Assembly: GCA_003971905.1 (NCBI GenBank)
Contig: RSEE01000059.1
Coordinates: 248,001 to 312,000, forward strand
Source of the DNA: Moniliella sp. 'wahieum'
Lineage: Eukaryota
Direction of reading: 5' to 3'
Length of the DNA stretch: 64,000 nt
Positions 3,095 to 61,537 of this stretch are shown piece after piece (within the stretch, counting starts at the first letter, position 1; the number at the start of each line of letters is the position of its first letter). The translations under genes were made by a program, and so were the position numbers. A model generated the notes under the pieces. It was not told the origin of the DNA. It ran no database searches and was given only the letters and a program-made list of their open reading frames with translations.

Positions 3095-4533
3095 ATGGGC
3101 GTTTTTACGCACCTCCCGTCTTGGGTCCAACCTATCGTCGGCAACCCTCTCAACCTTCTGCTTCTCCTCCTTCTCATCCAATTTGTTCGTCCTGCCCTGC
3201 GCCCCTGGACTGCTTGCCTCACCGCACCCTCGCGCTCGGCCTCATTCCTCCTCCTCTACCCCACTCCGGCTGAAGCAAAGTTGCGTGGCCTCCCCGGCCA
3301 CCTAGGGGCTGGTGTAGGTACCTTTTCGCGTCCCCCGCAGATCCCGACCGGTGGGGGCGGCGGTGGGTTTCACGGCGGGAACCCAGTTGCCGAAGCTCAG
3401 GCCCGCAAGCAGGCAATAGAGGATGGGGCGCAAACAACCCGGACGCGGTGGAGGAACTATCTGCGCCGGCTTGGTCGGGCAGAGCACGCTCCGGAACAAC
3501 GAAAAGAAGTACTGCTGTCTGCGCGGGCCGGCGTACAAGTGCGCACCCGGCGGGGCGTTTGGGCGCATCCTTCCCCATTCCCGGATGGCGGAGAGGAGGT
3601 AGGATACAGCTCTCTCCCCACATACCACACTTCGGTCTCGGTCTGGCGTCGTTACACTCCCAAGATGCTCGCCCTGTTCGATGGTGCCGGACTGGTTCCT
3701 CCGAGGAAGAGAAGGCCCGCGTCGCGGACCCTCGGCGCGAAGCAGGACATAACCCCCATGTTGAGACCGGTTCTTCCCCTGGCACGATGGACGCAGGACA
3801 GGATGCACCTCTTCCTGCAGGTCATCCGCCTGTCCCGGAAGGTGCCGATGCATCACACTGCCCTGCCTCGGCATCGTGGGCTCGTAGTCCCACCCCCCCT
3901 GCCGCTGCTACCGAGGAGAAGACGCTGCCAGAGGCCGAAGCAGTGGAGCAAGCTCCGCTTCCTCCTGGCCACCCGCCTGTACCAATGGGTGCAGGTATTT
4001 CTCAGTGCCCTGGTCTTGCGCGGGTGGCTGAGAAGACGGCGGTAAAGAAAGAGGAGCCCCCCTCTGAGCCTACCCCTGCCCCTATCCCTACCCCTTCTCC
4101 TCCTTTGGCCGATGATGATGCCCAGGCGGAATGGGAAGATCTGGTAGGGAGTTACTGTGGACCGACGCATTCTGGGTCGTCAGCCAGCGGCTCGGGGGTG
4201 ATCTTGATTGGGATCAATGGACGGGTGTATGATGTTTCGTCGGGGCGGGCGTTTTATGGTCCGGGAGGTCCCTATTCATCGTTTGCAGGACGCGACGCGA
4301 CACTGGGCCTGGCCAAGAACTCGTTTGACGCGGACATTCTCCCGTCCCTGACTGAGCGCCCCCTCTTCGTCCCCTTAACTCCTGGGGCACCTCCCATGGA
4401 GCTCCATGCAGACGCTGGACCGGTTGCCCATGCTACGAGGGACCTGACCAAAGCAGAACGCTACGCTTTGGCTGACTGGATCGAGATGTTTGAGTCCAAG
4501 TACGGTGTTGTGGGCGAGCTGGTTGCGGAATGA
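3095..4533 (+). CDS. DAP1: Membrane-anchored cytochrome b5-like heme/steroid-binding protein (Dap1/MAPR family); apparent frameshift ~3690
   Basis: N-terminal hydrophobic anchor (NPLNLLLLLLLIQFV). YTPKMLALFDG is followed, in the second frame, by ILIGINGRVYDVSSGRAFYGPGGPYSSFAGRDATLGLAKNSFD and LADWIEMFESKYGVVGELV. Confidence 0.85.
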
Positions 4534-5035
4534 AGAATGATTTTGGACTGATTGACGGGTGGCCTAAACTGTCTCTGACGCAGAGCTGTAGAACGGAGGA
4601 AACAGGGTCCAACACCCATAGTAATGCGAGCAGTCTAGCTGTTTCCCTCTCCCGCATTGTGACTCCTACCGTCAGATGATCGCTTGACACGCATTCTTCA
4701 GGGAATTGGCAGGCCCGCCTTCGTCCTCACCATGGCTCCCCAGCGTGGGCGTGTCGGCAGCAGCATAGATAATTGTGGTCCTCGTTGACAACTTGTCTTT
4801 GGGCAGTTAACACATGTTGCACAGCACGTGACTTGGTGACTTTAGTCAGCGACTAGTAAACCAAACATTCTCTTCGGGGTCCTTTCGATCCTATGGTCAC
4901 GGACCGGGATGTCCGATGCCCGGGGTGACCAGGATGGCCATCAGGGTGCGCAATTGGCCTGCAAGGGAGGATATGCCGTCTGGGTAGTTAGGCGGTGCAT
5001 TCTTTCGCCCGTTTCTCAGCATGAAGCGAGAGATG

Positions 5036-5080
5036 TCACATGTCACATGTCACATGTCATGCTTCAAGCTTCAAGCTTCA
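5036..5080. repeat. Phased (TCA-N4)7 heptamer array
   Basis: TCA at 5036, 5043, 5050, 5057, 5064, 5071, 5078; spacers CATG x3, TGCT, AGCT x2. Confidence 0.9.
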
Positions 5081-5569
5081 AGGCCGGGAGTCGGTTGGAT
5101 CGGCCCTTGATGGGTCTCATTCCCGCCGCTCCGTCGCTCCACTAGTTTCACTACAAACTGCTGGCGTCCTCACGCGCGGCCTCAGGCCTCACGAGTGCCG
5201 GTGACAGAGACGCGCGCTGGCGATGGCTTGGACCGCGGCTGAGCGCGCTGAGCCGCTGAGCCGCTTCGCTGGCAGGAGGTTATGCGCTTTGAAAACTGTG
5301 ATGTGCGGAATCTGTTTGTGGGGGCTTTTCCGCCCGCACAGGACGAGTGTGCAGCCAGGCTCCTTAAAGCCGCTGGGCCGCCACGAGAGTGGCCCCGTGC
5401 GGCAGCTGCATTGCTTCCGCTGGCCGCAGCGCCCTCAGTTGGGCCGTGTCCCCAATCCAACCGCTGGCGATCTCTTCTGCGGTCCGCTCCTGTCGTCTCC
5501 TTGCGCCCAACTACCGCGACCGCCGCCACCACTACCACCACTACCACCACCACCACCACCTACCCCACA

Positions 5570-5999
5570 ATGGCCTCTGCTGGTGCTCACTCGTCGCGCT
5601 TTCAGGCGTTCCTCAACCACCCGGCGGGTCCCAGGACTGTTTTCTTCTGGGCGCCCCTCTTCAAGTGGGCCCTCGTCATTGCGGGCGTCAAGGATCTTTC
5701 GCGCCCCGCCGAAAAGCTTTCCGTGAGCCAAAATGCTGCCCTCGCCGCCACGGGAATGATCTGGGTCCGGTGCGTCCTCCCTCCCCCCCCCCCCCCCACC
5801 CCCCTTCTCTGTTCCGGCGTAGCCCTGACCCCATCCTATTAGGTACTCGCTCGTGATCACTCCCGTCAACTACTCGCTCGCGGCCGTCAACTTCTTCGTT
5901 GGTGGCACGGGTCTCGCCCAGCTGGCTCGGATTTGGGATTACCGCCGCAAGCACCCCGTCCAGGCCGCGATCGAGGACAAGAAGGCTGATTCGGCGTGA
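5570..5999 (+). CDS. MPC2: Mitochondrial pyruvate carrier (MPC2 type); exons 5570-5769 and 5843-5999
   Basis: NHPAGPRTVFFWAPLFKWALVIAG...RPAEKLS...GMIWVR, intron 5770-5842 (GTGCGT...CTGAC...TAG), then YSLVITPVNYSLAAVNFFVG. Confidence 0.93.
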
Positions 6000-6216: not shown

Positions 6217-8365
6217 TTAAGCCTTTTTTTGCCCCTCTTCCTCCTCTTTCTCCTCTTCCTGCTCCTCATCGTCTCCCTCAATTGCGCCCACACGCCATTC
6301 GCCCTCGACGTCCCACCGGCTGCCACCCGCCGAAGCCGAAAGGTACTTGACAAAGTGCATCACTCCTTCATCCCTCAGCACCACATTGAGGGCATTGAAC
6401 TGGGGCGTCAAGTTGAGCAGCACACCATCAAAGTCGTCTTCAGGGTCATACTCCTCCATTTCAACCACTTCTCCTCCTCCTCCTCCTCCTCCTCCTCCTC
6501 GCTCTTCTTCTGGGCTTCTTCTCCCGCGTCCTCCTCCTTTTCCTCCTCCTTGGATGCGTCCCCGCTCTTTTTGGGACCGCTTCCATACACCGCCGGGTCA
6601 TCGTCTTCCTCCATCGGGGCCATAAAGCATTCCCATCCACCTGCGTCGCCCGAGTCCCATTTGACTCGCAGCTCTTTGATCTCCTTGGCCGACAGTCCAC
6701 CTGCCGGTCCAGCCGTCTTGGCACGTTTCGCTGCCAAGCCCTGCACCTTTTTTGTTGTCGTCGGCCCGGCCACCGAATCGGCCACATTGGGGGTCAAACC
6801 CAAATTCACATGCAGCACCGCTTCGTCCTCATCCTTCTTAGCCAGGGTGTAGTCAAGCCCGGGACGGAAGCGCCGAGCCCAAAGCGGGTAGCGAGCGGCG
6901 AGAGGAATGAGCTGGGTCACGTTGGCCAAGAACGCGCGGAACGCCGGGGAGGGGAAGAGGACAGATCGCAGCAAGGACAGAATGGCCTCGGCCGTAGCAG
7001 GCACAGACGCAGGCAACGCCGGATTCTGCCCCGTCAGCGTCGAGGGGACATCACCTTTCCAGTCCACGAGAGAAAGGAAGCGGTGGTGGTGCGGCGGTCC
7101 CTCAAGCTCCCACATGTCCTCAGTCCCAGCCGCAGCCCCGACGCCAGTCAAGTGCGGCTGGATGACGCAGGCCTCCCGCAGCTCCTCACCAGACTTGGCC
7201 TCACCAGTAGGCTCGAACCAGCGGAACCGATCGCGGCGGTCGAGGCCGATGAGGCCGGGCCGAAGCACGTCGACCAAGTCCTTCTTGAGGAAGTCGGCGA
7301 GAAGAATGCTGCTTTCATCGCCGAACTGGGCAAAGAGCTTGGCCTGCACCGAGGGGTTTAAGTAGGCCGGGTTGAGAAGAAAGAGAGGAAAGTGCGATCC
7401 TCCGCTGACAGCGGATTACCCGGCACCACGCTGCACGTCATATCCAACGTTTCTTCCCCTGCATCTTCCTGGGCTGCGGCAGGTGCGGCGTCGGGGTAAG
7501 GAACGAAAGGGCGGGTGCGTTTTGGCTCACCAAGCTTTCGGCGGAAGAGTAGTCCTTGCGCGCCTTCTCCTCCTGGTCCTCCACCTCTTGGGAAAAGCCT
7601 TCTCCGGAAGAGGGCGGTGGAACCAGCCCTGGATGCTGATCCGCGATGCCTTGGGGTGCACCACCTCTTCCACCGAGTGGAAGGAGTAGCCCGGAATGAC
7701 AGGGAAAAAGGCGAACTGGTTCCAGTAGGGTACGTGAACCGTAGTGGGGACCGGCTCGGGCTCATGAGCTTTGCTCACCGGGTAGAGCTCGAGGGAACCT
7801 CCGTACTCGCGCTTCCAATCGCGATCGGGCATGTAAAGGATGAAAGAGACGCGGCGCGTGGAAATCACATCACTACCACAGTAAGAAAGGTTAGCTTGCT
7901 CCCCCTTGCCAAGGGAAGGGGTACGTACTCATGGTTGAGTAGGTGGCAGCCATCGCGGTAGTCATTGATGCTCATGTCCTTCTTCTTCAAGGAGAGCGGG
8001 CCGCACCCGGTGATGCGCTGAACGACCGCGCGGAATTCCTCGGAGAAGATGGCATTGCGAACCTTCATCAGGTTCTTAAGTCGATCCTTCTCGCTATCCG
8101 GGAGCCCATCAAGGTTGGCCAAATCGCCAGTTTGGTTGACCTTGTAAATGTCAGTCTCCTTGTCGGCAAAACGCAGCTCCTCCACAATCTCGTCCCGTGC
8201 CGCATGCAACAGCGCATCGTCGAGCAGTGGCCGCACCGCGCCGTGGTGGTAGGGCTGGCTCTGGGCACAGGCCGCGGCGTAGTCCTGCACCAACTGGCTT
8301 TCGGCGTCGGCCAGGTCGGGCGACGAGAAGCAGACTGCAATCTCGGGACGGATGGAAACGGTCAT
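6217..8365 (-). CDS. TPA1: uS12 prolyl 3,4-dihydroxylase (Tpa1/Ofd1/OGFOD1); intron 7873-7928, several apparent frameshifts
   Basis: KETDIYKVNQTGDLANL; spliced GCHLLNHDDVISTRRVSFILY (HxD); FHSVEEV; RISIQGWFH; C-terminal RRFRPGLDYTLA, GGWECFM and VLRDEGVMHFVKYLSASAGGSRWD. Confidence 0.92.
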
Positions 8366-8737
8366 GGCGGTGGTGGGGGGAGGGGAAGTCGGGGGAGGAG
8401 CCAGCAACCTCGAGAAGAATAATTTGTCTTGTCGCGTTTTCTGGTCTGATTTCTGAGGCGAGGGGTTAAATGAACTGACTGAGAGCATATTGAGCGAGCT
8501 GAAAAAAAATGATGAAACTGCAAACGAACTATATAAAGCCAATCGGAGCAGCTTCATTAGCTCTTCACTAGTCGTCACTCCAATCACTGCAGCCTGCCCT
8601 TGTGCTCGATTTTGCCACTGTCACGTGGCCTGCCAAGTAACCCTTCGATTATAGCAGCTACTCTCTTCGTTCGCCCAAAGAGCCAGGGACCAGGCGCGGG
8701 GACATGGCACCATTGGCTACCGTTTCCATCTCGATCG

Positions 8738-9163
8738 TGTCATCAGATCTCAGAACCGAGAGAGAGAAAGAATGCCGACATTGGGAACTTATAGGACGAG
8801 GAGCTTCCCCGAAGGCGGCTTCGAAGGGAGGATAGGGCGCTATGGGGGGCAAGTTAACATAGGAGGATATATGGGGTCCCCGCCAGAGGAGGGAAGCATA
8901 GTTAGTGCACTGATGAACCCGTCTGGTTTTTCTGTATCGCTCACCAAAAGTGGTGATGATGAACTCGGAAACCGTTGTCATAGTTTGACTGATCTCTCAC
9001 TCCCATTTCTGTCCAATTTCTTCGTTCCGAGCGTCTCGCTCTTTCCCTGTTCTTCCGCTTCGCACCATGCCCTCTGCTCTTGCTTCCTCCCCACGAACGA
9101 GTTGATACATCCCTTGGCTTAGTCTCGACTCTGGTTTCGCTCGCCTTAGCCTCTACTGTGACA
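8738..9163 (-). mobile_element. Putative solo LTR / LTR-like dispersed repeat, copy A
   Basis: 426 bp bounded by TGTCA...TGACA. The reverse complement of 8973-9163 aligns with 14001-14172 and partly with 38611-38663. Flanks GATCG/GATAC are only a partial TSD match. Confidence 0.6.
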
Positions 9164-10302
9164 GATACCGAAGAAGAGCTCAGATTGCAGAGAGCACCAA
9201 ATGGAAATGAAGGTCGAAGGAGATGCGAAGGCGGTGTGGCGAATCAAAGTCCTCATCGAGTTGGGGGGAACGACGCCCGAAAGGCATCGCATGCTTATCA
9301 TATTGTATGATGCTCCTTCAAGCTTCAAGCTTCGAGCGTCAACAGCTCCAGCCTCGGACGGAGGCAATGCGATGCCTGGGACGCATGGATGTTGCATGAC
9401 GTACAAAAATGGTCGCAAGTCAACGTTCCGTGCTCGCCATGCTCGATAATGACGATGCATCGAGCAGATGGATAGTCCTGGCTCTGATGGGCAGAGGCAA
9501 AAGGCGGAGGAGAAAGCCGATACAGAGGCGGCAGCGGGAAGAAAAGGTCAGTAAATTTGGCTTGGCACAATCCCGCTCATACCCTGAGGCCTGTGGCCAG
9601 ATGACCATCGAGGGTGGTGGAGTCGCATTAACACTAGTGGTGGTGGTTGATGGTGGTGGTTGTATAGACTTGGGCCAGCGAACGACGCCTGCAGAGAACT
9701 CATCAACAGGCCACTGCACCCAACCGCGCCCGGACTTGAAGGACAATGTAACAAGCGAGAAAACCCCCGCTTTCTTCGTGGCATCCCTCCGGCCCGGCTT
9801 ATCGTTCCTTCCGGATTGCGCGCGGCGGTTAGTCGGAAAGACGAGTTCCCCGATGTCGGTGACTCTGCGAAAAGGAATCATCATCACATCCGCCATGATA
9901 TTCCGCCATCCCCGCGTCTGCGGTGCACCTCCCCCGCCGTAGTTCCGCGCAGGGCACAAGGCTCGGGGACTCACGATAGCCTGGGGTTAATGGGAAGCCG
10001 GTGAGCCGGTACCTGGGCCGTGGAATGTGCCGTGCGGTCGAGCCCCCATCAGAATGAATACGACAGAATGGGGCCGCTTCCGCATCCGCTCGTGCCCTCA
10101 ACCGGTGATGCACCACGCCAACCTCGGCCGAGCCAGGCCGAGGCTCCGACGAGCCGGTGATTAGGTCGTGCGCATTCGGCCTTAGGCCTTAGCATTCGCG
10201 CGCGTGATTGAACTATGTGAGCCGTGCTGAAAGCCTCGTCTTACGCCATTCAGCTGCCTCCCGTCCCTCACCACCCCCACCATCGCTCCGCCAAAGTCAC
10301 CC

Positions 10303-13207: not shown

Positions 13208-14000
13208 AGCAACAGGACTGGCTGGGCACGGCAGCGAGGCGGGAGATGGCGGAGTGGGTTGGTCTGCGCAGCCAGATCGGGCCCTGGCGACCCGAATGTT
13301 GCTCTGCCTCGCTTCGGCCGCGCCGGGCACGTGACCTGCCACGCACGCGCGTGTTGTGGAAACTTTCGTTTGCTATGCGCCACGTGACAGGCACGTGATG
13401 CCAACCTCTTTGTTCAACTTGAACGTTGAGTTCAACGTTCACGCGTTCACGCGCCGTCAGATCTTCTCGGACGCTTGCCTCCCCAGCCTCCCCAGCCTCC
13501 CCTCGATCTGATCGGTGGACAGATCGACACACTCACACCAAACGCTCATCAACTGGTCGCAACAGTGTTTGCAAAGTGACCGTGGTCTGTTGGACAGCTC
13601 TCATCCAGTGTGCTGGGTTCCATTGTTCTTTGGATGTGTTGTTTCGTCCGGACTGGTGTTGCACTGTATAGTAGTGTGTGCGAACATGGCGATGTCTCAC
13701 TGAAGATGGGCTCTGTGGTGGGCTCCTACTGGTGGCCAACACTTCCTTCAAATCAGTTGTCTAGAGGAACACGTTGTCGTCCCTCCTGCTATAGAATGAT
13801 GATAAAGAGAACTAATGTGACGCCTCACTATGGGGTTGGCGCCTGTAGCCCAAGCGTGGAACCTTCCGGTTCATTCCCTCCAATATTCCTTCCTGGAGGG
13901 CAGGAATATTCTCTAGTCTCTGTAGCTCATCAGTGTGCAATACAATACACCATCACCTGCCTGCCCTCTGGTCTTCTACAACTAATTTACGGCTGTCACA

Positions 14001-14172
14001 TGTCACAGTCGAGGCTAAGGCGAGCGAAACCAGAGTCGAGATTAGGCTAAGGGATGTATTGGCAATCGTTCGCGGGAAAGAAGTAGACATGTGGTGCGAA
14101 GTGGAGGAACAGAGGAAAAGAGCGAGACGCTCGGGACGAAGACATTGGAAATGGGAGTGAGATCAACACTAT
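14001..14172 (+). mobile_element. LTR-like dispersed repeat, copy B (inverted relative to copy A)
   Basis: Begins TGTCACAGT and shares GAGGCTAAGGCGAGCGAAACCAGAGTCGAGA, AAGGGATGTAT, TGGTGCGAAG, AAAGAGCGAGACGCTCGG and AAATGGGAGTGAGA with copy A. Confidence 0.7.
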
Positions 14173-16459
14173 AGGACAGGATGATCATTTCCATCTATCT
14201 TCTTCGTCGCCCCGTGTTGGCTCCAAAAGTCCAACGCTGCATTCCTTTCGTCAAAACAAGAACAGAGGGACATGCGTCTTTTGGTGGAACACTTGTTCCA
14301 TCATGCATCAACCCCCACTCCATTTCTCTTGCGGGCGCAGTTGCGCGGCAATATGGTGCTTTTGTTGACCAGGGTCCTATGGGCCAGCCACCTCCGCGGC
14401 ACTCCTGACCATCTTACTCATCCGGGCACCACACCAGTATCCCTATCCCCTGGCCTAGTGCCGCTCTCCTTTCTTCTTCTCCCTTCTTCTGATCCTCGGT
14501 CTGGGTTCAACCCAGCTCCTGTCTTCTCGACGCCATTGCATAACTGCACTTAGGACGTCGCTGGGTAACCAGGATCATTTGCTTTCTCCAAAAGGGTTTT
14601 CAAACTTCCCTTTCCTCCGCAGGGCCAGCTCTCTCAGCTCACAGCAGAACGCAGCTCCGCCATTGCTCACTCGCATTGACATAGTTCACTCCAAGCTTCA
14701 ACGCCAAGCGCGACTTGAACGCAGAAGTTCAACGACGCTCATTTGCCTCTGTTGCGTCAGAAAAAAAAGGTCATGGGTTACATGGCTTGTGGAGGTCAAT
14801 CCTTCTGACGCCCCCATCCAGGCTGAATAGTGCAGGCTCAAGCACATACATGCTTGGCTAACATGTAACACGGAAGACCGTGGGCTGGATTCTGTTTAGT
14901 CATCTTCTCCACTTTCTTGCGACGCCCGGTGGGTAGCCCATTGCCCATCTCCCATGATGCATGATGCATGACATATTCATGACTTGCGTGCATGATGACG
15001 TTTTGCATGATGCAAACCCTGCCTAAGGCGTACAAGGTAGATGTGTGTTCAACTTTGAAACGGTCAACGTGCAACGTCCAACTTGAACGTTCAACCTTCA
15101 TGAGCACATGGCTCAGGGTGAGGCTGAGGCTGAGGCTGCGGTAAACGAGTAACCCGGTAACCATCGGTTTCAGTGACGTCATACGTCAGTATTCAATGGA
15201 GCAGATCAGATTCGGAAGTTTCCCCGGCTGCGCGCGGAGAGGGGAGGGACACAGCCCTAGTGTTCGTCGTGTTGCGACCGAGAGCAACGCGCTCTGTGGG
15301 GGGATGATTAAGTGATTGATCCTTTGGCGTGCCAGATTCGGCGACAGCATCGACATGTCCTGTACGCCCCCGGCAAAACGGTGGCGGGGATGTCGTGGAT
15401 GCTCGAAGGTCGACTGCTGCAGCGGTGATGATGGCATCGATGGGCAATGGTTAATGGGGGGGCTGGCAGGTGGCTAGCACAATTCAACGCTTCATGACTA
15501 AGAATGGGTGGTCGATGGTCGATGAGCGGAATGACCACTGGGCACTACGAAATGTGCAAGCCACACGAGGCATACGTCTCCACACTGAATACACAGGGCT
15601 GACGCTGCTGACGCGCTGGAGCTACTAGCGCCAGCCGGGCCCCAGGGCGGCAGGCCTGGCCGCACAGCACGCTGAGCCAGGGTGGGGTTAAACGTTAATC
15701 GAGTTCAGCGTTCGTTCACCCAACTTGAACGCTCAGATCCCAGACACTGGTGCCCACCCCTAGCCGCTCGGGGCTACGCGCAACCAGCAGCCAGCACTAA
15801 CTCAGTTTTACTAAACCCGTGAACGTTACTAAACGCGGCTGCTCCTCGGCGGCATGCGGCGAGCGTAGCGTTAACTCCTGTTCATGTTAGAACTCCCCCA
15901 CAGACCCCTCGATCAGCGATCACCGCAGACTGGTGGGGTGCCTGCATGCGGATGACGTAGCGCATCCGCCGCCCCAACAGTGTGCCCGCTGTCACGCATC
16001 GGTCACCGCTGCCCCCTGCTGGGTGCACCGGAGAACACGCAGGCGCGGCGCTGCTGGTTCTCCGCGCAGGCTCGCTGCCCCGCGGCGCGGCGGCTGCAAG
16101 CGGGAGGCAGGCTCGGCTGGGCACGGTCTGTGCTCGGCCGGGGAACAGCTGCGGTGCCTGGGCGCCCACACTGCCCCCGCGCCGCACCCCCCGCGTGCAC
16201 GGGGCAGCACAGGCGCGCAGGCATAAGAAGGGTTGACATGCGTGCGCTCAAAGCCGCCGGCACGGCGGGTGTCGCCGTGGTTGCGCAGCGCCCTGCCCGC
16301 TGGCTGCTCCAGTGCTCCCACCCGCCACGCGGTGCTGCTGACGCTGACGCAAGACAGTGCAGAAACCTTCCTGGGTGCATGTCCGCTCTATAAAAGCTCT
16401 CCGCTGCTTCCGTCGCCCTCCCGCCCCCGCCCCCCTACCCCCACCCCCTCTTCACCGCC

Positions 16460-17872: not shown

Positions 17873-19078
17873 AATGGTTGCTATGACCCCGGATCGGATG
17901 GGATCCCCCTTCCCCTTTTTTCTAATGGCCTCTCTGTCTCTACCCACATGGCTCCATCTTCCTCGCCGCCTGTGTTGCGCTAGTGTTAATGCGTTTCGCT
18001 CTTCCTCTCCCTGACGGGAGGCCTGTCTACACTGTATGACCTCTTTTATACCGTGCTTGAAGCGCCAGTCTTGGGCCTCTATCTGATAGCCTCGACGAAA
18101 GGAAGTAGACCCAATCAATGCTAAGACGAACTGCGAGTTTGAGCATGTAGTAACGTGTGGGGTACCGGTAGTAGTAGGCGAGAAGGGCCAAGTAGGGGAT
18201 GCATTGGGTCCATGCACAAAATGTTGGACCACACGTGATCGGTGACGGCGGGCCCCACATTTCCTCACTAGTGCTTCGTCGGGCATTCCCGGGCCCCGCC
18301 GGGCCTTGCTCTCGGTTATTGTCTTAGTACATACTTCGAACTCGCCGCTCTGCGAACGTTGCGCCCCCAATGAGCGCTGAGCCTGAGCGCTGAGCTGAGC
18401 GCCCTGAGCGCGCTGAGCGCCTTTTGCCAAAAGAGCCAAGGCCCTCAGCGCCTCAGCCCCGCTTGAATCAGGGTCAGACATGCGTCCCAACATCCCAACA
18501 CGGCAGACATATATTACCAGGATACCCCTGGTTCCATCTACCCCGATGCCTAATAGTAACCCAAATAGCAGGACCAGCCCCGCCCCGCGTTTCTATAACC
18601 TGCGCGGGACGCAGCAGCCGACAATTCACGACAGGAACGCTGCTCAGGCGCTCACACTTGGATGGAGAGTTCCGGTGTAGAGAAGGCGTGTCCCATATAT
18701 AGGCTCGTATAGTATACCATGTCTCGCACCCCAGTTCCAGGCTTTTTGGAAAGGAACCCACCAATGAAAAGAATGGCAATGGGAAGAGGAGAGCAGAAGG
18801 TCCGTAAACAGGGGTTGCTGTGGCAAGATCTATTAAGAGTATACCCATCATTACCATCTTGCCTGCATCATAATTTAACTCGGACAATAACATGACAACA
18901 AAAAGCCCGTGGCCTTTCGGTTAATCAAGTCTTGGCCCTTTTTAGCTCTCCCTCCCTCCCTTCCGTTATTGGCAGCCCCACCGCACGCTGGATGACAGAC
19001 AAGCCAAACCACCGCGGGTCTCCTTCGTATGTCACATGCCATATGTCATACACTTCTGTCACCATGAGCGCCTGAGCA

Positions 19079-21014: not shown

Positions 21015-21628
21015 CCACGGTTCACCCACGGTTGGAGCGCACGGGTAAATACGTTGCGGGCAAAGTCGGCACAGAAGATGGAGGTGCAAAAAAGGGAGAA
21101 GGGCTGGGCCTTAGGCAGTGCTGTCCGTAGGCAGAGGGGTGTGACGCGGCTTGCCGGCTTGACTCGACGTGACGTTTAAGAAGCTGGCAGACAGCTGGGC
21201 CGAGGTTCATCCATTTCCTTATAGCTGCCGCCGGCGTCGCGATCGGAGCGCTCCTACAACGGCGTTCAACTGATGTACTGACGAGAAGATATGCCTTCCA
21301 ATGCCATTACTGATTGGCACTGGAAGATCCCGATGCCGATGATGATCAGCCTACTAGGTAATCCTCAGCCGCTCTGTGCAAATTTGCACTCAATGAGTAC
21401 TCAGTCTGGGTACTGAACTCAGTTACTCAGCTGTTTGTCCATGTCACTATCACTAGCCACTAGCCACTAGTCACTGGCGTCACATGTCACACATCACAAG
21501 TGACAATGCCACCTAGTCACCACTGAGTTCAGGACACTCTGAATACTCAGACTGAGTACCTTGGCGCCCTCGTCGCTGTGGCAGCTACAACTGGCAGCGT
21601 ACTCCTGCCCCCCAGAACCATGCCTGAA

Positions 21629-29570: not shown

Positions 29571-29643
29571 TGAACATTGATCCTCGATCCTTGAGCCTTG
29601 AGCCTTGAGCCTTGAGCCTTGAGCCTTGATCCTTGAGCCTTCA
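29571..29643. repeat. Phased heptamer array, mostly (TGAGCCT)n
   Basis: TGA (one CGA, last TCA) at 11 consecutive 7-bp positions from 29571 to 29641. Confidence 0.9.
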
Positions 29644-33508: not shown

Positions 33509-33789
33509 TGAACATTGAATTTGAACGTTGATCGATGATCGTTGACTAGTGATCCGATCGATGATCTCCTTATGATCGCCCGGCCCCCAACCTAAGAACC
33601 CAAGAAAGTCACTAATAGCGACTTCAATAAGCTTCAAACACGTTCAACGCTTCAACTCGAACTTTTTGTGTTACGCTCCGTTGTGCCCTAAACTTATGAA
33701 ACGCAGGTGTCGCGGATGGCATGGATGACATGGTACTTGGGGCTCAGTGAGCACTGGCTGAACGCTGAACGTTGAACGTTGAACGTTGA
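33509..33789. repeat. Two phased (TGA-N4)n arrays
   Basis: TGA at 33522, 33529, 33536, 33543, 33550 (spacers ACGT, TCGA, TCGT, CTAG) and at 33759, 33766, 33773, 33780, 33787. Confidence 0.85.
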
Positions 33790-35439: not shown

Positions 35440-36049
35440 TACACATGGCCTCCCTATCATTCATCTCAGAAAGCCAAGCTAAGCCTATGTTTTGTCTTGC
35501 TGTTTCAAGTGGCTGCCTCCACAGCCTCTCTCTTCTCATGACTCACACGTGGTACGACGGCATGTGGGCAAACATCGTTATTATTCCATTCCGTTCCCTG
35601 CATGATGTCGACAAACAATGGTGATCACACTGAACCTAACCCCTTTCTCCGCCTGTTTGAGACGGGATGCTCATCGCGTCATAAGGTACCACCCGCGCGG
35701 TTTCTGGTTCTCTACCGACACATCGATCGCTGTGAGCCTTCTCAGTACACGGCGGATTAAAAAATAGGTAGAAAATGTAGGAGATGTGCAGGGGCTGTAC
35801 ATCTGCGAGGCGTTTGAATGGGTTTTGGAGGACAATGATGTCAGCGAAGGCGAAAAAAGAGTGGTTAGTGGAATGTAATATGTGCATTTGTGTGCAGTGC
35901 CAGGGGCCCAATGCCGTTGCATGTGAAAGCTTCCTATATGCGCTCACGGTAGCTGGCCAAGGGCAGGGAATCGATTTGGCGTAGTCGCCGCACGGAAGGG
36001 TATGCTGTACGGGGGACGTGTCTTCACATTAGCCAGGGGAACATCGGCA

Positions 36050-36590
36050 ATTGGTTTGGCCAAGATCTATAACGTGGTAAATGGAACCTCATTTCATGTG
36101 GACCAAAAGGCTGGCCATGCGGGACAGCATTGCCCACTGATAGGGGTTTGCTCATCAGGCGTCCATCCTGCGGCTAGTTGCTTGAGTACAGGGCACGCAG
36201 GGACGACTGGTGCAGCCCGCTGCAGAAGATAGGCCTTGGTCCTTCACATTGCTTTGAAAAGTCTGTTGGGCTCTCTCAGCAAACCGACGAGGTCATCGAG
36301 AGTATTTCGTCCTGATGAATCCATAGTCGGACAGGCGCGTTTGAGAGATGGGTCTGAAACCGAAATCCGTCAAGTGAGACTATCTCGCAGAGGTTAGGCT
36401 ATCGTATACGCGGACTTGTCACTTCTTCACCATCTCTTCTTCTTTTCATCAGGCGTGTGTGGGCTCGTGAACCAACCATCTGACCCATTCCTCGTTGGTT
36501 CCGACAACAGTAAGGTTGGATGTGTGGTCGGAGCTTGGCACCACTGGTCCGTGTAGTATAGGCGTCCGTCATCGCAGTTTCTGACTCCGC
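36050..36590 (-). pseudogene. Possible degraded Ty3/gypsy integrase remnant
   Basis: Broken frames give DGRLYY, VRWLVHE, RVYDSL, TMD, DFSK, GWTP and IS...AFW in the order expected for a gypsy integrase. Low-GC, ORF-poor region. Confidence 0.4.
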
Positions 36591-38610
36591 CGGATATTCA
36601 TTGGACAGAGCAATTGTAGGTGGTCACAGAATGACCCCATCAAACGGACCAGAGCGAATGACACCAGTCGACAAATACGGGTTAACGACAGAGTGTTACA
36701 TTTGCGGACCGGCTTGCCCTTCAAACTGTCCTTCACGCAAAATCTACCTTTTGCTTAATGAACGCGGTGTGCGTGTGCGATCTGTCCCAATGACGTGGAA
36801 GATTGTTATTGGAAGTCTCGCTCATCCACTGGCCGTCTGGCAAGGTGATGTGCAGAGCCACGTCGCGTCGCGTCAGATGCCCAGGGACGTACCGATGTCC
36901 AGTAGCTCCCCACGATAAAGGCTAGGGACAAAGGTGACCGTGCCAACATACGCGCTGTGTATAGTTAGAGCACATTGCAGAGCACAGTCGGCAACACATC
37001 ACGAGCCGGAGGGCGAAGTGCACCCAATTGACCTGGCAGTAGGCCCGGTGGTCTCCTAGTCTGACATATTAATGTCAGATGTGGACCAGTAGAGATGGTG
37101 GCCAGCGTTCGCCGGTTGGAGCCAACTGAGATCGTGCTTGCGCGCCGGAGCGCATGGTGCACGAATAATGCCTGCTGCAGTATTGTAGCTGGGTTATTGG
37201 TCGCGACTCGGTGTGCCCGGTGTGATCTTGGTGATGTCGGACGTCCTTGTGTCGAAAAGACAAGTACGGGTATCGACGACATCCGGTGCACATCCAATGG
37301 CTGGCAGTGCGGGGATCGCTGAAGCAAGAGTTGGAGGAGCTAGGGCTCCAGTCTCCAGTACCTTGGTGTCGATACATTGCGGGGTTACCGACTGCGAACG
37401 TTTGAATGTGCGACTCAACTTGCACTGTTGCTTGTTTCTTCGATCTGTTGGTCATCAGGCACTCAACACACGCAGCCTTATTCCCTCACCAGGCCTCACC
37501 ATTGAGCGACAGTTGCCTACTGCCGGTCACGGGCGAAGACGGTTTGGCAAGCCCAACGAAGCCTAAGCGCGCCTTTCGCCTTCCTAACCCCATCCCCAAG
37601 TTGGTCGTAGGGTCAGATTTAATCTGGAGACGATAGTCGCCCCGTGCCCTTTGCCTTTTTAGGTTGCCCGTACCCAAACCGCCTGCCCTGTTTTCCCGTG
37701 TCCCCCGTTCTTCCTCTATGCTACACAGCCTTTTAAGTTGCCACATTTGCAGCCGCCTCTACTATACGCCAAGGCTTTCCCCTTGTCCCTATCCTCTCCG
37801 CTCGCACCATCCAATCAGCCCAAGCGCGTAACAACCGTGAGTCGACCTTAGTATTTCCAATGGATTAGACCCCTTAACCCCCCCGGTCGGGCCCCCTGGC
37901 AGCGCCCGCCCTTACACTCCTGGTATAGAGAATGTTGGGCGTTTCCCTGCAGCAACAGCGCATCAGCGCTTCTTCAGTTAGGCCCCTGGGCCTGACTAGC
38001 CAAATCCGGCCAGGGGGCAAAAGACTTGCCTAGATAGTATACGTTATGGACCCCCCCGCATGTGAGTGGCGCAATCTGCTCTACCCCCCCCGCACTGCAG
38101 CCCACACTTGACAAGAGCCAGCCAGACCCCCTGGTTCCTGCCTCTTTCCACACACACCCCACCAGCATCCCTCGCCGCCGTGTACCAGAGTAAGTGCAAC
38201 ATCCCGTCCAGGCAATGCTCGTGCGAGCCCCTCTCGCGGACCCAGCAGTATCGGCGGTCTAGCTCACACCCGCACCGTCTAGGTTGCCAGGCAGCCGAAA
38301 TGGACGAACCGGACATGGACGAGCCCGCCCCCATCCGGTCTCTTCGCCGCCGCCCCGCCCGCAGCCTGACGGTCCCTGAGACAGCGACAGATGACGATGA
38401 AGGCGCGCAGGCAAATGGTCCAGAAGACGTCGATCAAAATGACGCAAGCGATGCGCAAGATCACGCCCGTGCCCCTGGAGGCGTGCAGGATGCCATGGAT
38501 CAACGTGATCGGGGGAACGCTGGATGCAAGAGCTTCAAAGTGTGCGTGATGAATTTCAGAACTCCCTCGACGCCTTTTGGAGTGAATTCCACGCCACCCT
38601 CCAACAACAA

Positions 38611-38663
38611 CTCGAGACGAAGAAATTGGAAATGGGAGCGAGATCAGCCAAACTATGACAACG
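38611..38663 (+). repeat. LTR-like repeat fragment, copy C
   Basis: CGAAGAAATTGGA-AATGGGAGCGAGATCAGCCAAACTATGACAACG matches the reverse complement of ~8973-9030. Confidence 0.7.
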
Positions 38664-39573
38664 TCGAGGACGTATCTGACGTTCAAGTGGGTGACGTGGA
38701 TGACTATCTAACCTTCAGGGGGTTGACGTCGAGGACGTAACTGACCTGCAGCGCGTGCACTGGTTTGTATAGGTCATCCTAAACTAAATACTCTTCCGAC
38801 GTTTTTGAAGGTATCATTTTATACTTCGAACATTTATGACCTCTTCTTTTTTTAATCCGCTGTGTAGTACTAGCACGAAGGAGGCAAGTCAGTACGTGTA
38901 CTGAAGAGGCAGAGTTGCAGCTGACAGATGAGAAGCAACTTTTATTTTCCTTCTCTATAGACCACTTCGCTTTCATTCACAGTTGCTTGGAGTCACTAAC
39001 TTGGATGCGTCTTCGCCGACGACAGCACGATCCCCCTGGTCCCTTGACCCTGGTGGCGCCCCCAAGTTACCCCGCAAGATGAACGGTTAGGTTTAGAGAC
39101 GTAGCGTTCCGCTGTCCCAGCCTTAAGCTCTGTCAATGAAATGGACGTGACCTAGGGATATGACGAACAACGTCGTCCTCACCGCTATTGGGCTCGTCTG
39201 CCAGTCGGCTGATTTCCTTGTGGTCTGGCCAGTGGCATATGTGTTGAGCGTGAATAAGGGAAAAAGCAGAGCGTTGCAGACTATACGACTGTGGTTGGTG
39301 GGGCAGGGGGGAAAAATAAGCGGTGAAGCTTGAAGAGATTCTTACAACCCAGAACCGAGATGCCCTTTTCGGCCGGATCGTCCACCGTCACGTGATGTAC
39401 ATTCCAGACAGAGCGTTCCGCCTCGCCTCTGACGTCATGCGGCTGGCGCTGGGGCTGGCCAGGGCACCGGCTGAGTCGGATGTCTTGAGCCGGCGCGACG
39501 CGGCCTGGCTTCTTGCTCCTCCCCACCATGCCTGGCCAACCCACCCAGGGCTGGCCCCAGCCACGCCAAGCGC

Positions 39574-41480: not shown

Positions 41481-42399
41481 ACCGAACCCAAATGCCAGGG
41501 CGGTCAGCGGTCAACGTTCAACTTGAACACGAAAGGATACATGTTCACCAGATGGACTTGTCGCGTTGGATGGGGGTAGCCATTGGACGGTCCACCGGCT
41601 TGGCGATAGATGGGTGAATTTGATGCCGCGTGGATTTGTCTGGGACAGGGAGCTTGGTTGACGCGGTTGACGCGGTTGACAAATGCATCCCCTTGAGAGT
41701 GATCAATGTTCAAAATTACATTTGTTCGACCATGTCGCATGAGGACCAACATACAAATGCGGGCAATGGCAGTATGTGTGCAACCTTTGACAAGTACGGT
41801 CCATCAAGTGTTCCTCGCGGTATGTGCCTCACGCCTTTTACTTGAAGCACCCAGGGGCGCGCTTGATCATTAAATGGACCTGTGGACTTTTTCAATTGCT
41901 ACCCGTGTTCCTCAGCGAGCGTGGAGCTTCCTTCGCCTGTGCCGCCGGCGCAGGAGAATCTTTTTGGCGTACACTGGTGCCGGTCGGTAGCTGCCAGCAC
42001 CACTGTAGCCCATTCGATGCTTGAATCCTTCGTCTTTGCCAAGGGTGTGTTCAACTAGAAGATGCTTATTGCCGATGGATGTGATCGGCTAGGCGACCAC
42101 TCTGCAGCTGACCGGTCCACCACGCTCTCAGATCCCATTGACCTCGTCCCAGCCGTCGTCGAGGGTTACAACGTGCCACGTGCCACCTGGCCCTGCAAGA
42201 TGGAGCAAGCGCCTTTCCCATGCCTACCAGGGATCATACATGTGCGTAATCGAACCGGTTGGACACAGTCGATAGATACCAAGAGACAAGGAACGAAAAG
42301 ATGCAGCAGCAAGATAGCAGAAAACCGCAGAAGATAGCAGGCCCGAACCAGCGAGCCCAGCCCTTCTGCCCTGGTCGGAAGGAGGAGGAGGGGGGAGGA

Positions 42400-44390: not shown

Positions 44391-45213
44391 GAGCTGGCGC
44401 AGCGGCGGCTGGCCATCGGGGGGCGGGGCGGGCGGGGAGGAAGGGGGCACGGCAGGGCGCGTCTCGCAGGGGCCGAGGAGCTGGTGGAGGAGAAGAGAAG
44501 GGGAGGTGGCGGGGCGGGTGCTGGCGAGTAGGACGCAGTATGCGGGGCCCGGGGCGAGGCCCGGGGTGGGCAGGTGGGGGTCGAGGCGGCGAGGAGGGCC
44601 ACGTCGTCGGCGGACAGGGTGGCGGCTGCTCGTCGGCGATGGCCAGGCCGGCACGCTCGAGGCGGCGGAGGATGGCGAGGCGGTGGACCTTGGCGGCGCC
44701 GCGGCGGGACGAGGACGGTGTGGTCGGCGGCGTGCATGCCGGGGAGGGCGGGGGTGGGGTGGGGAGTAGGCAGCATGCTGAATGCTCAGCGCACGGGCAG
44801 GCGGAGGGCGGCGCGGGCGGCGGCTGCTCCACATGCCAGCCACCGCTGCAGGGGGGGAGCACAGCGGAGCCAGCCTGCGCCCAGCACGGCGCCTGTCACC
44901 TGTCGCCTGTCACGTGTCAGTGTCACTGCCGCCCGTCACAATCACACGCAGCGCCATGCATGTCACCGGCACCTGCCCCCTGCTGCCCCCCACACTGTGC
45001 CTGTGCGCCCCTCTCGCTACGGCTGCCTGCTGCTGCTCGTCCCTTGCAGATCATCCATCTGCATGCATTGCATTGCATTGCATCTGCATCACCCCCCGCA
45101 GCCTCCGGCGTCACGTGATATGGATATCCCCGCCCGACGCTACCGTACAACGCACACATATATAGCCCACCCCACTCGCTCGGCAGTCGCATCCCATTCG
45201 CCTCGCCGCGCGC

Positions 45214-52167: not shown

Positions 52168-52270
52168 CACGTGCAGGGGCACGTGATGGAGGACACGTGA
52201 TGGAGGACACGTGATGGAGGACACGTGATGGAGGACACGTGATGGAGGACACGTGATGGAGGACACGTGA
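52168..52270. repeat. 14-bp tandem repeat (CACGTGATGGAGGA)6 plus partial copies; 8 E-boxes
   Basis: CACGTG at 52168, 52180, 52194, 52208, 52222, 52236, 52250 and 52264. Confidence 0.95.
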
Positions 52271-61018: not shown

Positions 61019-61537
61019 GGTGTGGGTGATGGGGTGATGGGGTGGTGGGGTGGTGGGGTGGTGGGGCGGGGCGGCGGGGGGACGCAAGAGGCGGCTGCCT
61101 GAAGGCCTGAAGTGGCCAGGGATCGACGCACCGCACAACCCTAGCGCGCGTTTGACGTGGCAGGGTTAGTAGCCGCGCGCCCCAAAATGGGGTGAGTGTG
61201 GGTGGGTGAGTGCTGGGTACCGGTGAGTACTGAGTATGTATACGAGTGGAGCGCGTCAGCAGCTCAGCCCAGCCCCGGTCTTCCGCCACCCCCAGCGGCC
61301 CGACTACCGCCTGCGCGGCTGGGGCGGCCAGGGCCAGCCATGCCCCGTGTCCGCCCTGAACTGGGCGCATCATCGCACGATTCTGCCCCCACGACGCCCC
61401 GACAACATCATCCAGCTATGTCAAAATGACTGATCGTCAGGCCTCAGGCCAGCCTCAGGCGCCGGTCCATCTGTTCCATCCAACCCACGCAACGCCGCCG
61501 TGCCTCTCGAGTCGCCTTCTCTGGCGGGCACGCTGCG

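Follow-up and report, generated by a model that had tools for sequence, protein, structure and literature searches.

Arrays of T-any-A triplets (TxA, where x is any base) held in exact 7-bp phase are scattered through the intergenic DNA of the fungus Moniliella sp. 'wahieum', and we conclude with high confidence that these arrays arise from a stereotyped hairpin-type insertion. The reading that we favor, and consider probable, is that they are the accumulated scars of the entry and exit of a cut-and-paste transposon. Footprints of excision have usually been described one locus at a time and vary in form, whereas here one uniform footprint makes up 72 of the 210 non-coding 6-9-base differences between gene copies. 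Intergenic DNA carries ~1.6 TxA-palindrome-TxA cores per kb, from which tens of thousands can be extrapolated for the whole genome. The transposon reading, if true, would trace a class of microsatellites to a concrete source and would provide a readable archive of earlier transposition and of the way hairpin ends are opened and joined in this fungus, a map of accessible DNA (new events cluster near older cores), and a precise target signature for locating a transposon with an unusual 7-bp duplication. Such motifs are also liable to be mistaken for transcription-factor sites.

The 7-bp rule in intergenic DNA

The window, that is, the whole stretch of 64,000 nucleotides analyzed here, belongs to contig RSEE01000059.1 of a eukaryotic assembly (GCA_003971905.1) of 69.5 Mb in 223 contigs, with many one-base errors. 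The nearest named proteins of the window citrate synthase come from Ustilaginomycotina (Exobasidium, Pseudozyma flocculosa, Malassezia, Ceraceosorus and Tilletia, 65-69% identity). Most window genes have two further copies elsewhere in the assembly, at 69-80% DNA identity, and these two are collinear and close to each other (~96% identical, with ~2% coding and 3.5-3.8% non-coding substitutions; contig pairs C9/C18, C1/C73, C27/C5, C22/C20 and C20/C159); across all three copies, coding DNA diverges by 20-30%. Three gene sets can be recognized, as in a hybrid or an unphased polyploid, and the window gene order is not preserved in the other copies. The close collinear pairs provide a natural before/after comparison, and the 1.0 Mb retrieved consists mostly of such pairs. 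Statistics are based on 574 kb of non-redundant sequence (313 kb intergenic and 261 kb genic) from the window and 100 further stretches, with ~440 kb of aligned copies; the event rate comes from 187 kb of aligned columns. Because of the one-base errors, genes were delimited with our own frameshift-tolerant gene model, and intergenic limits are approximate. One-base indels between copies are frequent in coding regions across the assembly (~0.7 per 100 bases), for example at 6220-8406 of the window, and broken frames are therefore probably assembly errors.

The original prediction held that TGA or TCA (TSA) triplets, interchangeable and separated by free, often palindromic 4-base spacers, form a single intergenic grammar. 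Its type example is accurately described: seven TCA triplets stay in 7-bp phase at 5036-5080, with the spacers CATG, CATG, CATG, TGCT, AGCT and AGCT (Table 1). The window contains 14 overlapping four-unit TSA runs, whereas none occurs in any of 20 order-4 Markov copies. TxA-palindrome-TxA cores number 34 (Markov mean 1.55, maximum 4), and 33 of these lie outside our gene models. Genome-wide, five-unit phased TSA was found at 2,689 places (overlapping matches counted) versus 146 at period 8; the reversed pattern occurs at 549 places, which partly belong to the same arrays. The 12 other sites that had been listed in the window are a mixed set. At six of these (14955, 15084, 21480-21503, 29592-29643, 33522 and 33759), there are at least three phased TSA triplets, and so there are at 41504-41520, one unit upstream of the predicted start; 9318, 13414-13449, 18371 and 61437 have two-unit cores only, and 44896-44919 has neither a phased run nor a core. 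The GCCT array is real, but its phase begins at 29592 rather than at 29571 and its spacer is not palindromic; it is explained by slippage, as a plain 7-bp unit expanded in tandem.

Table 1. Phased arrays, cores and neighboring genes in the window (window coordinates)
Feature	Position	Strand	Description
Upstream gene, cytochrome b5-like domain	3274..4533	+	Pfam PF00173, E 1.9e-08; stop-to-stop frame, frameshift errors in assembly
Compound array	5034..5082		Seen in the sequence; putative reconstruction as one ancestral TG-TCA-AG site plus six 7-base units
Left-type units (three)	5034..5056		Spacer CATG, predicted from left flank TG (mirror of TG, then TG)
Putative original triplet	5057-5059		TCA of the ancestral site
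Right-type units (three)	5060..5082		Spacer AGCT, predicted from right flank AG (AG, then its mirror)
Single core	5182..5191		TCA-GGCC-TCA, 100 bp from the 5036 array
Downstream mitochondrial pyruvate carrier (MPC) gene	5570..5996	+	Pfam PF03650, E 5.6e-24; end from gene model
Core	9318..9327		TCA-AGCT-TCA, then decayed units
Two ACGT cores	13420..13441		One TGA and one TCA, 12 bp apart, differing phase
Array	14955..14971		Three TGA with TGCA spacers
Two cores	18371..18393		TGA-GCGC-TGA, 13 bp apart
CATG core	21480..21503		Decayed neighbors
Array	29592..29643		Eight phased triplets, spacer GCCT; exception to the palindrome rule
Array	33522..33552		Five TGA; spacers ACGT, TCGA, TCGT, CTAG
Array	33759..33789		Five TGA; spacers ACGC and three ACGT
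Core	41511..41520		TCA-ACGT-TCA
Core	61437..61446		TCA-GGCC-TCA

In non-redundant intergenic DNA, TSA triplets recur at distance 7 at 2.73 times the expected frequency and at distance 14 at 1.57-1.70 times, compared to 0.91 and 0.82 times, respectively, in genic DNA. Masking of identical-unit repeats, a test that had been set beforehand, left an excess of 1.83x at distance 7; when palindromic cores were masked as well, it dropped to 1.26x. Thus, the claim that different-looking microsatellites form one class under one 7-bp rule holds, but the rule itself had to be reformulated. It is not restricted to TSA, given that TAA and TTA follow it too (3.7x at distance 7), so that the triplet is T-any-A. 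Nor are TGA and TCA interchangeable: mixed pairs number 150 compared to ~178 expected, and neighboring units share the same triplet. The spacers are indeed often palindromic (399 of 751 same-triplet pairs compared to 6% by chance), but they are not free: palindromic spacers are found 399 times versus ~11 expected, those with one mismatch 213 versus ~62, and fully unpaired ones 139 versus ~105, ~1.3 times the background. The commonest spacers include 14 of the 16 palindromic 4-mers.

The arrays do lie in tandem, divergent and convergent gene contexts, as originally stated, but not evenly. Almost all TxA-palindrome-TxA cores (491 of 499) are intergenic, and their density is 1.47 per kb in divergent gaps and 1.20 in tandem gaps, compared to 0.42, about a third, in convergent gaps. 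Outside the cores, the repeat extends by exactly two bases (match 0.60-0.69), after which the match falls to ~0.35. Among arrays consisting of a 6-bp palindrome plus one base, 94 have the outer pair A..T, and the other outer pairs are represented by 1, 3 and 3 arrays; such hexamer-palindrome arrays are absent from Markov controls and from genes. In the 11 arrays with two different end spacers, the flanks predict the spacers on both sides in six (including 5036), on one side in two, and on neither side in three; among single cores, 63 of 307 match neither flank. The array at 33522..33552, where the end spacers are not predicted by the flanks, would therefore be old or multiply hit. Perfect 10-bp palindromes of the form TGA-palindrome-TCA or TCA-palindrome-TGA number 50 in intergenic DNA versus ~11 expected, and these mixed palindromes could come from longer P tracts or from quasi-palindrome correction.

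No description of this heptamer pattern was found in titles and the opening parts of abstracts. The original prediction compared the arrays with CACGAAT repeats, in which the intergenic DNA of Ustilago maydis would be rich. A literature search for this repeat gave no paper by title or abstract, and the repeat falls outside the rule found here because its spacer as quoted is not palindromic. Among at least 120 metagenome loci with five phased TGA triplets (80 with flanks), none of those listed had multiple palindromic spacers above controls, a result that says little about the presence of the pattern in relatives. One metagenome contig (L127) carries seven separate TCA-ACGT-TCA cores in 2.6 kb, with a single spacer type.

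Insertions between homeologous gene copies

The sizes of non-coding indels between close copies peak at 7 bases, and the alignments capture the birth of individual units. An empty site v w TxA y z becomes TxA + y z z' y' + TxA (two bases of the flank followed by their mirror) or carries the mirror product w' v' v w, with a net gain of 7 bases; in the 7-base indels with an inverted filler, the empty allele T x A y z has become T x A y z z' y' T x A y z. Among 6-9-base indels, those that fit this rule are confined to non-coding DNA (72 of 210, compared to 0 of 29 in coding DNA). When the model is written as two tips, each two bases outside TxA, 85 of 339 clean non-coding indels of 4-12 nt fit, versus 14, 13 and 18 for the control triplets AxT, CxG and GxC; with the tip placed 1 or 3 bases from the triplet, the fits drop to 14 and 46. 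In the +7 class, there are 50 TxA events compared to 0, 0 and 0 in the controls, and in the +9 class 11 compared to 0, 0 and 0.

Events with a full y z z' y' side comprise 50 of +7, 11 of +9, 4 of +8 and 7 of +6. In all of these, one side carries the complete palindrome; on the opposite side, 0 bases remain in 50 events, 2 in 11 and 1 in 4, and in 7 the T is lost as well, so that the rarer +6, +8 and +9 forms have the non-palindromic side trimmed by 3, 1 and 0 bases, respectively. The spacer in fitted events is an even 4-base palindrome, the duplication spans 4-7 bases and never extends beyond v..z, and P nucleotides on both sides were seen in none of the 85 polymorphic events. At one site, one copy carries the left product and the other copy the right product. 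The model leaves 22 eight-base-plus-2 patterns in the genome-level count unexplained.

The orientation and the target of the events can be read from the same alignments. Four of the 72 events lie within multi-copy repeats, and in all four every other copy is empty, so that the insert is the derived state. At 38 oriented empty sites, position 1 is T in 31 and position 3 is A in 34, whereas the middle base is C in 17, G in 15, A in 4 and T in 2. Most events (59 of 72) occurred at sites without an earlier core; existing cores received 13 of the 72 although they make up 6.5% of sites, and new events lie at a median of 103 bp from an older core versus 604 bp (p 2e-11). The 72 events stand against ~7,200 substitutions, that is, ~1 event per 100 substitutions. 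Most of the aligned cores (139 of 213) are identical in both copies, and the others show decay.

Applied to the type array, the rule would account for its architecture: the switch from CATG to AGCT is explained if one site was hit on both sides, and the 7-bp phase is maintained because each unit is added at the same triplet. The first right-type spacer, TGCT, would differ from AGCT by one later substitution. The likely ATG of the MPC gene, at 5570, is 490-535 bp downstream of the array. At 2836-2932 of the window, there is an Rfam match to a tRNA gene, for which ARAGORN gave none; it looks intron-containing, with the anticodon GTA by eye.

Proposed excision through flank hairpins and its rivals

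The transposon model, deduced from the geometry of the insertions, would operate as follows. A transposon of the cut-and-paste type, duplicating 7 bp of target and favoring nnTnAnn, would insert, and would later be excised through flush hairpins on both host flanks by RAG/Transib chemistry. A Pso2/Artemis-type nuclease would open each hairpin 2 nt 3' of its tip, leaving two 4-nt 3' overhangs which, given the 7-bp duplication v..z, would read y z z' y' and w' v' v w. End joining would retain one overhang and usually drop the other, yielding the +7 product, with +8 and +9 resulting from partial retention. Flush hairpin tips 7 bases apart and two P nucleotides would be the geometry of a flank-hairpin transposon, and a palindrome without a central base, copied from the flank without priming homology, is the mark of a covalent hairpin. 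The scar recreates a palindromic target, so that repeat hits (or slippage) would add units, and a site hit from opposite sides would end up with two kinds of spacer in the same phase, as at 5036. Since cut-and-paste transposition adds no copies, one or a few active elements could produce many scars.

RAG and Transib cleave by nicking and hairpin formation, with P nucleotides as the trace (PMC4840297); with hAT, Transib and MULE transposases, the hairpin arises on the flanking host DNA and its processing falls to host enzymes (PMC5499845); and in the case of Pso2 and Artemis, the cut falls 2 nt 3' of the hairpin apex (PMC3299998). A simulation of the process without selection gave a 2.1x peak at distance 7 and a similar spacer spectrum, but underestimated the peak at distance 14 (1.19x compared to 1.57x). 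Several observations count against the model: mixed TGA/TCA perfect palindromes are in excess; 63 of the 307 single cores match neither flank; in 5 of the 11 two-spacer arrays, at least one end spacer is not predicted by its flank; two hairpins should sometimes leave P nucleotides on both sides, which was never seen; and the dominant +7 product involves no microhomology, in contrast to the majority of Ac footprints from yeast and plants (PMC5873905).

The original prediction inferred a cooperative scaffold of phased TSA triplets with free spacers, kept by selection and read by a general DNA-binding protein, and this now appears improbable. Its appeal lies in the confinement of cores to intergenic DNA, with higher densities in divergent and tandem than in convergent gaps, in the 1.26x residue after masking, and in a deficit of single-base differences at triplets (22 versus 34.7 expected, compared to 24 versus 23.1 in spacers). 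However, a denser 5' gap is expected from a promoter element and from insertion bias alike: insertion into open chromatin should favor such gaps, and frameshifting insertions should be absent from exons. The deficit in single differences (0.63 times the neutral rate) is not significant for the triplet share (p 0.10), and when all differences are counted, triplets change at about the neutral rate (36 versus ~33, ~1.1 times), so that there is no clear constraint, weak constraint being possible. The excess lies in palindromic or one-mismatch spacers, TAA and TTA obey the rule as well, and the units appear in a single step with a flank-templated spacer, as stereotyped insertions between homeologous copies, all of which speaks against a scaffold of fixed TSA and free spacers. 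In the one promoter examined, that of the MPC gene, the three copies do not share the element: the upstream elements differ in position, and one copy has no core within 1.3 kb. Moreover, the neutral simulation yields a distance-7 peak, so that a scaffold is not needed for the pattern. Short motifs concentrated in 5' intergenic DNA are familiar from yeast general regulatory factor sites and replication-origin repeats, which have a shared sequence motif, unlike the 14 different palindromic spacers here, each copied from its own flank. Later co-option of arrays as protein binding sites or nucleosome signals may have occurred.

Among the other rivals, ordinary replication slippage of hairpin-prone, near-palindromic microsatellites would fit the 33 full tandem duplications among 94 clean 7-base indels, the over-representation of existing cores among the targets, and the folding of the 5036 strand (z -3.06). 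As the origin of the units, it is highly improbable, and is refuted by the 31 of the 94 indels that repeat only 5-6 bases and carry inverted filler and that, therefore, are not tandem duplications; it cannot make the first unit, which the events at core-free sites represent, and gives no reason why the outer pair should be A..T only. Slippage may well extend arrays as a secondary process. An artifact of an error-rich long-read assembly deserves hardly any credence: the frequency of one-base indels in coding DNA does indicate an unpolished assembly, but most aligned cores are identical in both copies and the rest decayed, and the absence of fitting indels from coding DNA argues against assembly error, which would affect exons too. 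The most serious competitor, which we nevertheless consider rather unlikely, produces the same scars without a transposon: either a host or orphan nuclease (e.g., a domesticated transposase) makes cuts at nnTnAnn that are staggered by 7 bases, or a polymerase folding back at T-x-A copies two bases before it restarts 5-7 bases back. It is favored by the one-sidedness of the P nucleotides, by the lack of a matching element in 1.06 Mb and of hAT, MULE, Harbinger, KDZ or Plavaka matches in the genome, and by the T.A pair around one base, which could prime fold-back. These family searches, however, are insensitive in an error-rich assembly, and four of them had silent controls; furthermore, the duplication together with the flush hairpin would be hard to obtain without an insertion step. 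With respect to fold-back, the priming base is not favored in the +9 class (the first base is T in 14 of 63 cases with A in place, and T occupies position 3 in 59 of 90), so that the role of TxA is that of a target rather than of a primer. The pattern is present in all three gene copies, divergent as they are, and the process is therefore old.

Known transposons and candidate elements

For the transposon model, the closest chemical parallels are the P nucleotides of RAG V(D)J coding joints, likewise an even palindrome at the joint, as from a flush flank hairpin, and the nick-hairpin cleavage shared with Transib (PMC4840297, PMC5499845), and the opening by Artemis/Pso2 at 2 nt 3' of the apex matches the two P nucleotides found here (PMC3299998). 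The scars differ from these in that the joint lies within a duplication of up to 7 bases centered on TxA, and in that the product is very uniform, with one-sided P nucleotides, and accumulates genome-wide as germline-type changes. Two features expected of flank-hairpin transposase footprints are found in the scars, namely, flank-templated even P nucleotides at a fixed tip and the remnant of a fixed-length target duplication.

The hAT elements (Ac/Ds) leave short palindromic insertions at the empty donor site, and their footprints in Candida albicans, a biased set with short P tracts, resemble the scars, but the center of a hAT footprint is an unpaired base, complementary to the one adjoining the element, which does not fit a palindrome without a central base (PMC5873905). 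The hAT7 elements of rust fungi produce 7-bp duplications, the right length (PMC12730594). The same length is found in Kyakuja (KDZ), a basidiomycete cut-and-paste group with CA..TG ends and no inverted repeats (PMC12730594). The MULE Muta1 makes the hairpin on the flanking DNA but, unlike the scars, has 8-9 bp duplications and more than 90% precise excision (PMC5499845). The fungal EnSpm-like CNEST and CNIRT6 elements are basidiomycete cut-and-paste transposons with 2-3 bp duplications, unlike the 7 bp here (PMC12810828), and the CMCT elements, of the clade that includes EnSpm and Transib, are described with 2-5 bp duplications, shorter than the length of 7 that the scars point to (PMC12730594).

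An element of the EnSpm/CMCT clade would nevertheless be our candidate agent. The EnSpm-type Transposase_21 domain (PF02992) has two genome matches (G000:C17:557095-557541 and C34:514908-515195; one match at E 1e-12), and this transposase is a candidate link to the source of the scars. We consider it doubtful that the agent is a RAG/Transib-like transposase of long standing, which may have been domesticated, or else a CMCT lineage not yet described whose targets are 7-bp nnTnAnn, and that it cuts promoter DNA and leaves V(D)J-like P-nucleotide joints. Were this so, a single enzyme would write a third of the 6-9-base non-coding indels and would leave many palindromic 6-7-mers in promoter hot spots, some of which perhaps are binding sites now.

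In 1.06 Mb of the 69.5-Mb genome, the search yielded no inverted-end element flanked by a 7-bp nnTnAnn duplication, nor did any of the large presence/absence differences listed between copies have such a duplication. An inverted-repeat scan with 7-, 8- and 9-bp duplications gave 3, 2 and 1 candidates, respectively, none TxA-centered; a relaxed CA..TG scan gave 2 TxA candidates, which are array or chance matches, versus 1, 1 and 0 in controls; and among 127 matches to candidate element ends, five, at three sites, were TxA-flanked and none was element-like. Genome searches for the hAT, MULE, Harbinger, KDZ and Plavaka families gave no matches each, with the limited sensitivity given above: hAT (PF05699) had 0 matches with 2 candidates scored and a silent control, MULE (PF10551) had 0 matches, and KDZ (PF18758) had 0 matches with a silent control, KDZ being elements that the inverted-end scan would miss.

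Three potential sources were rejected. A 9.1-kb element with CACG-starting inverted ends (G000:C20:415502-424630, from L059:6500 to L060:5630) is absent from the other copy and has at least 40 related ends in the genome, and its ends resemble those of CNEST (PMC12810828). It was discarded as the source because it has a 2-bp duplication and no transposase family was found among the 40 frames scanned. Solo LTRs have 4-6 bp duplications with no TxA preference by eye and do not excise. A 3-bp TNA-duplicating element is not supported either, given that TxA-TxA pairs show no excess (301 versus 350) and the filler derives from host flanking DNA rather than from the ends of an element.

Other repeats were noted along the way. 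Opposite-strand copies of a ~190-bp TG..CA repeat at 8976-9163 and 14001-14165 of the window are solo LTRs, and elsewhere this repeat flanks both ends of 3.7 and 5.7 kb insertions. The window also contains a ~2.8 kb dispersed repeat at 35746-38611 (more than 20 copies at 74-84% identity, no Pfam match), a 217-bp dispersed repeat at 14363-14579 (at least 26 copies at 81-96% identity), a 32-bp tandem repeat at 38661-38751 (2.8 copies) and, at 52180-52270, a perfect 14-bp tandem repeat of 6.5 copies that includes CACGTG. Short insertions in the C20 and C9 stretches (three examples), with no duplication and with a CTAG-like end by a GC-rich hairpin, are helitron-like.
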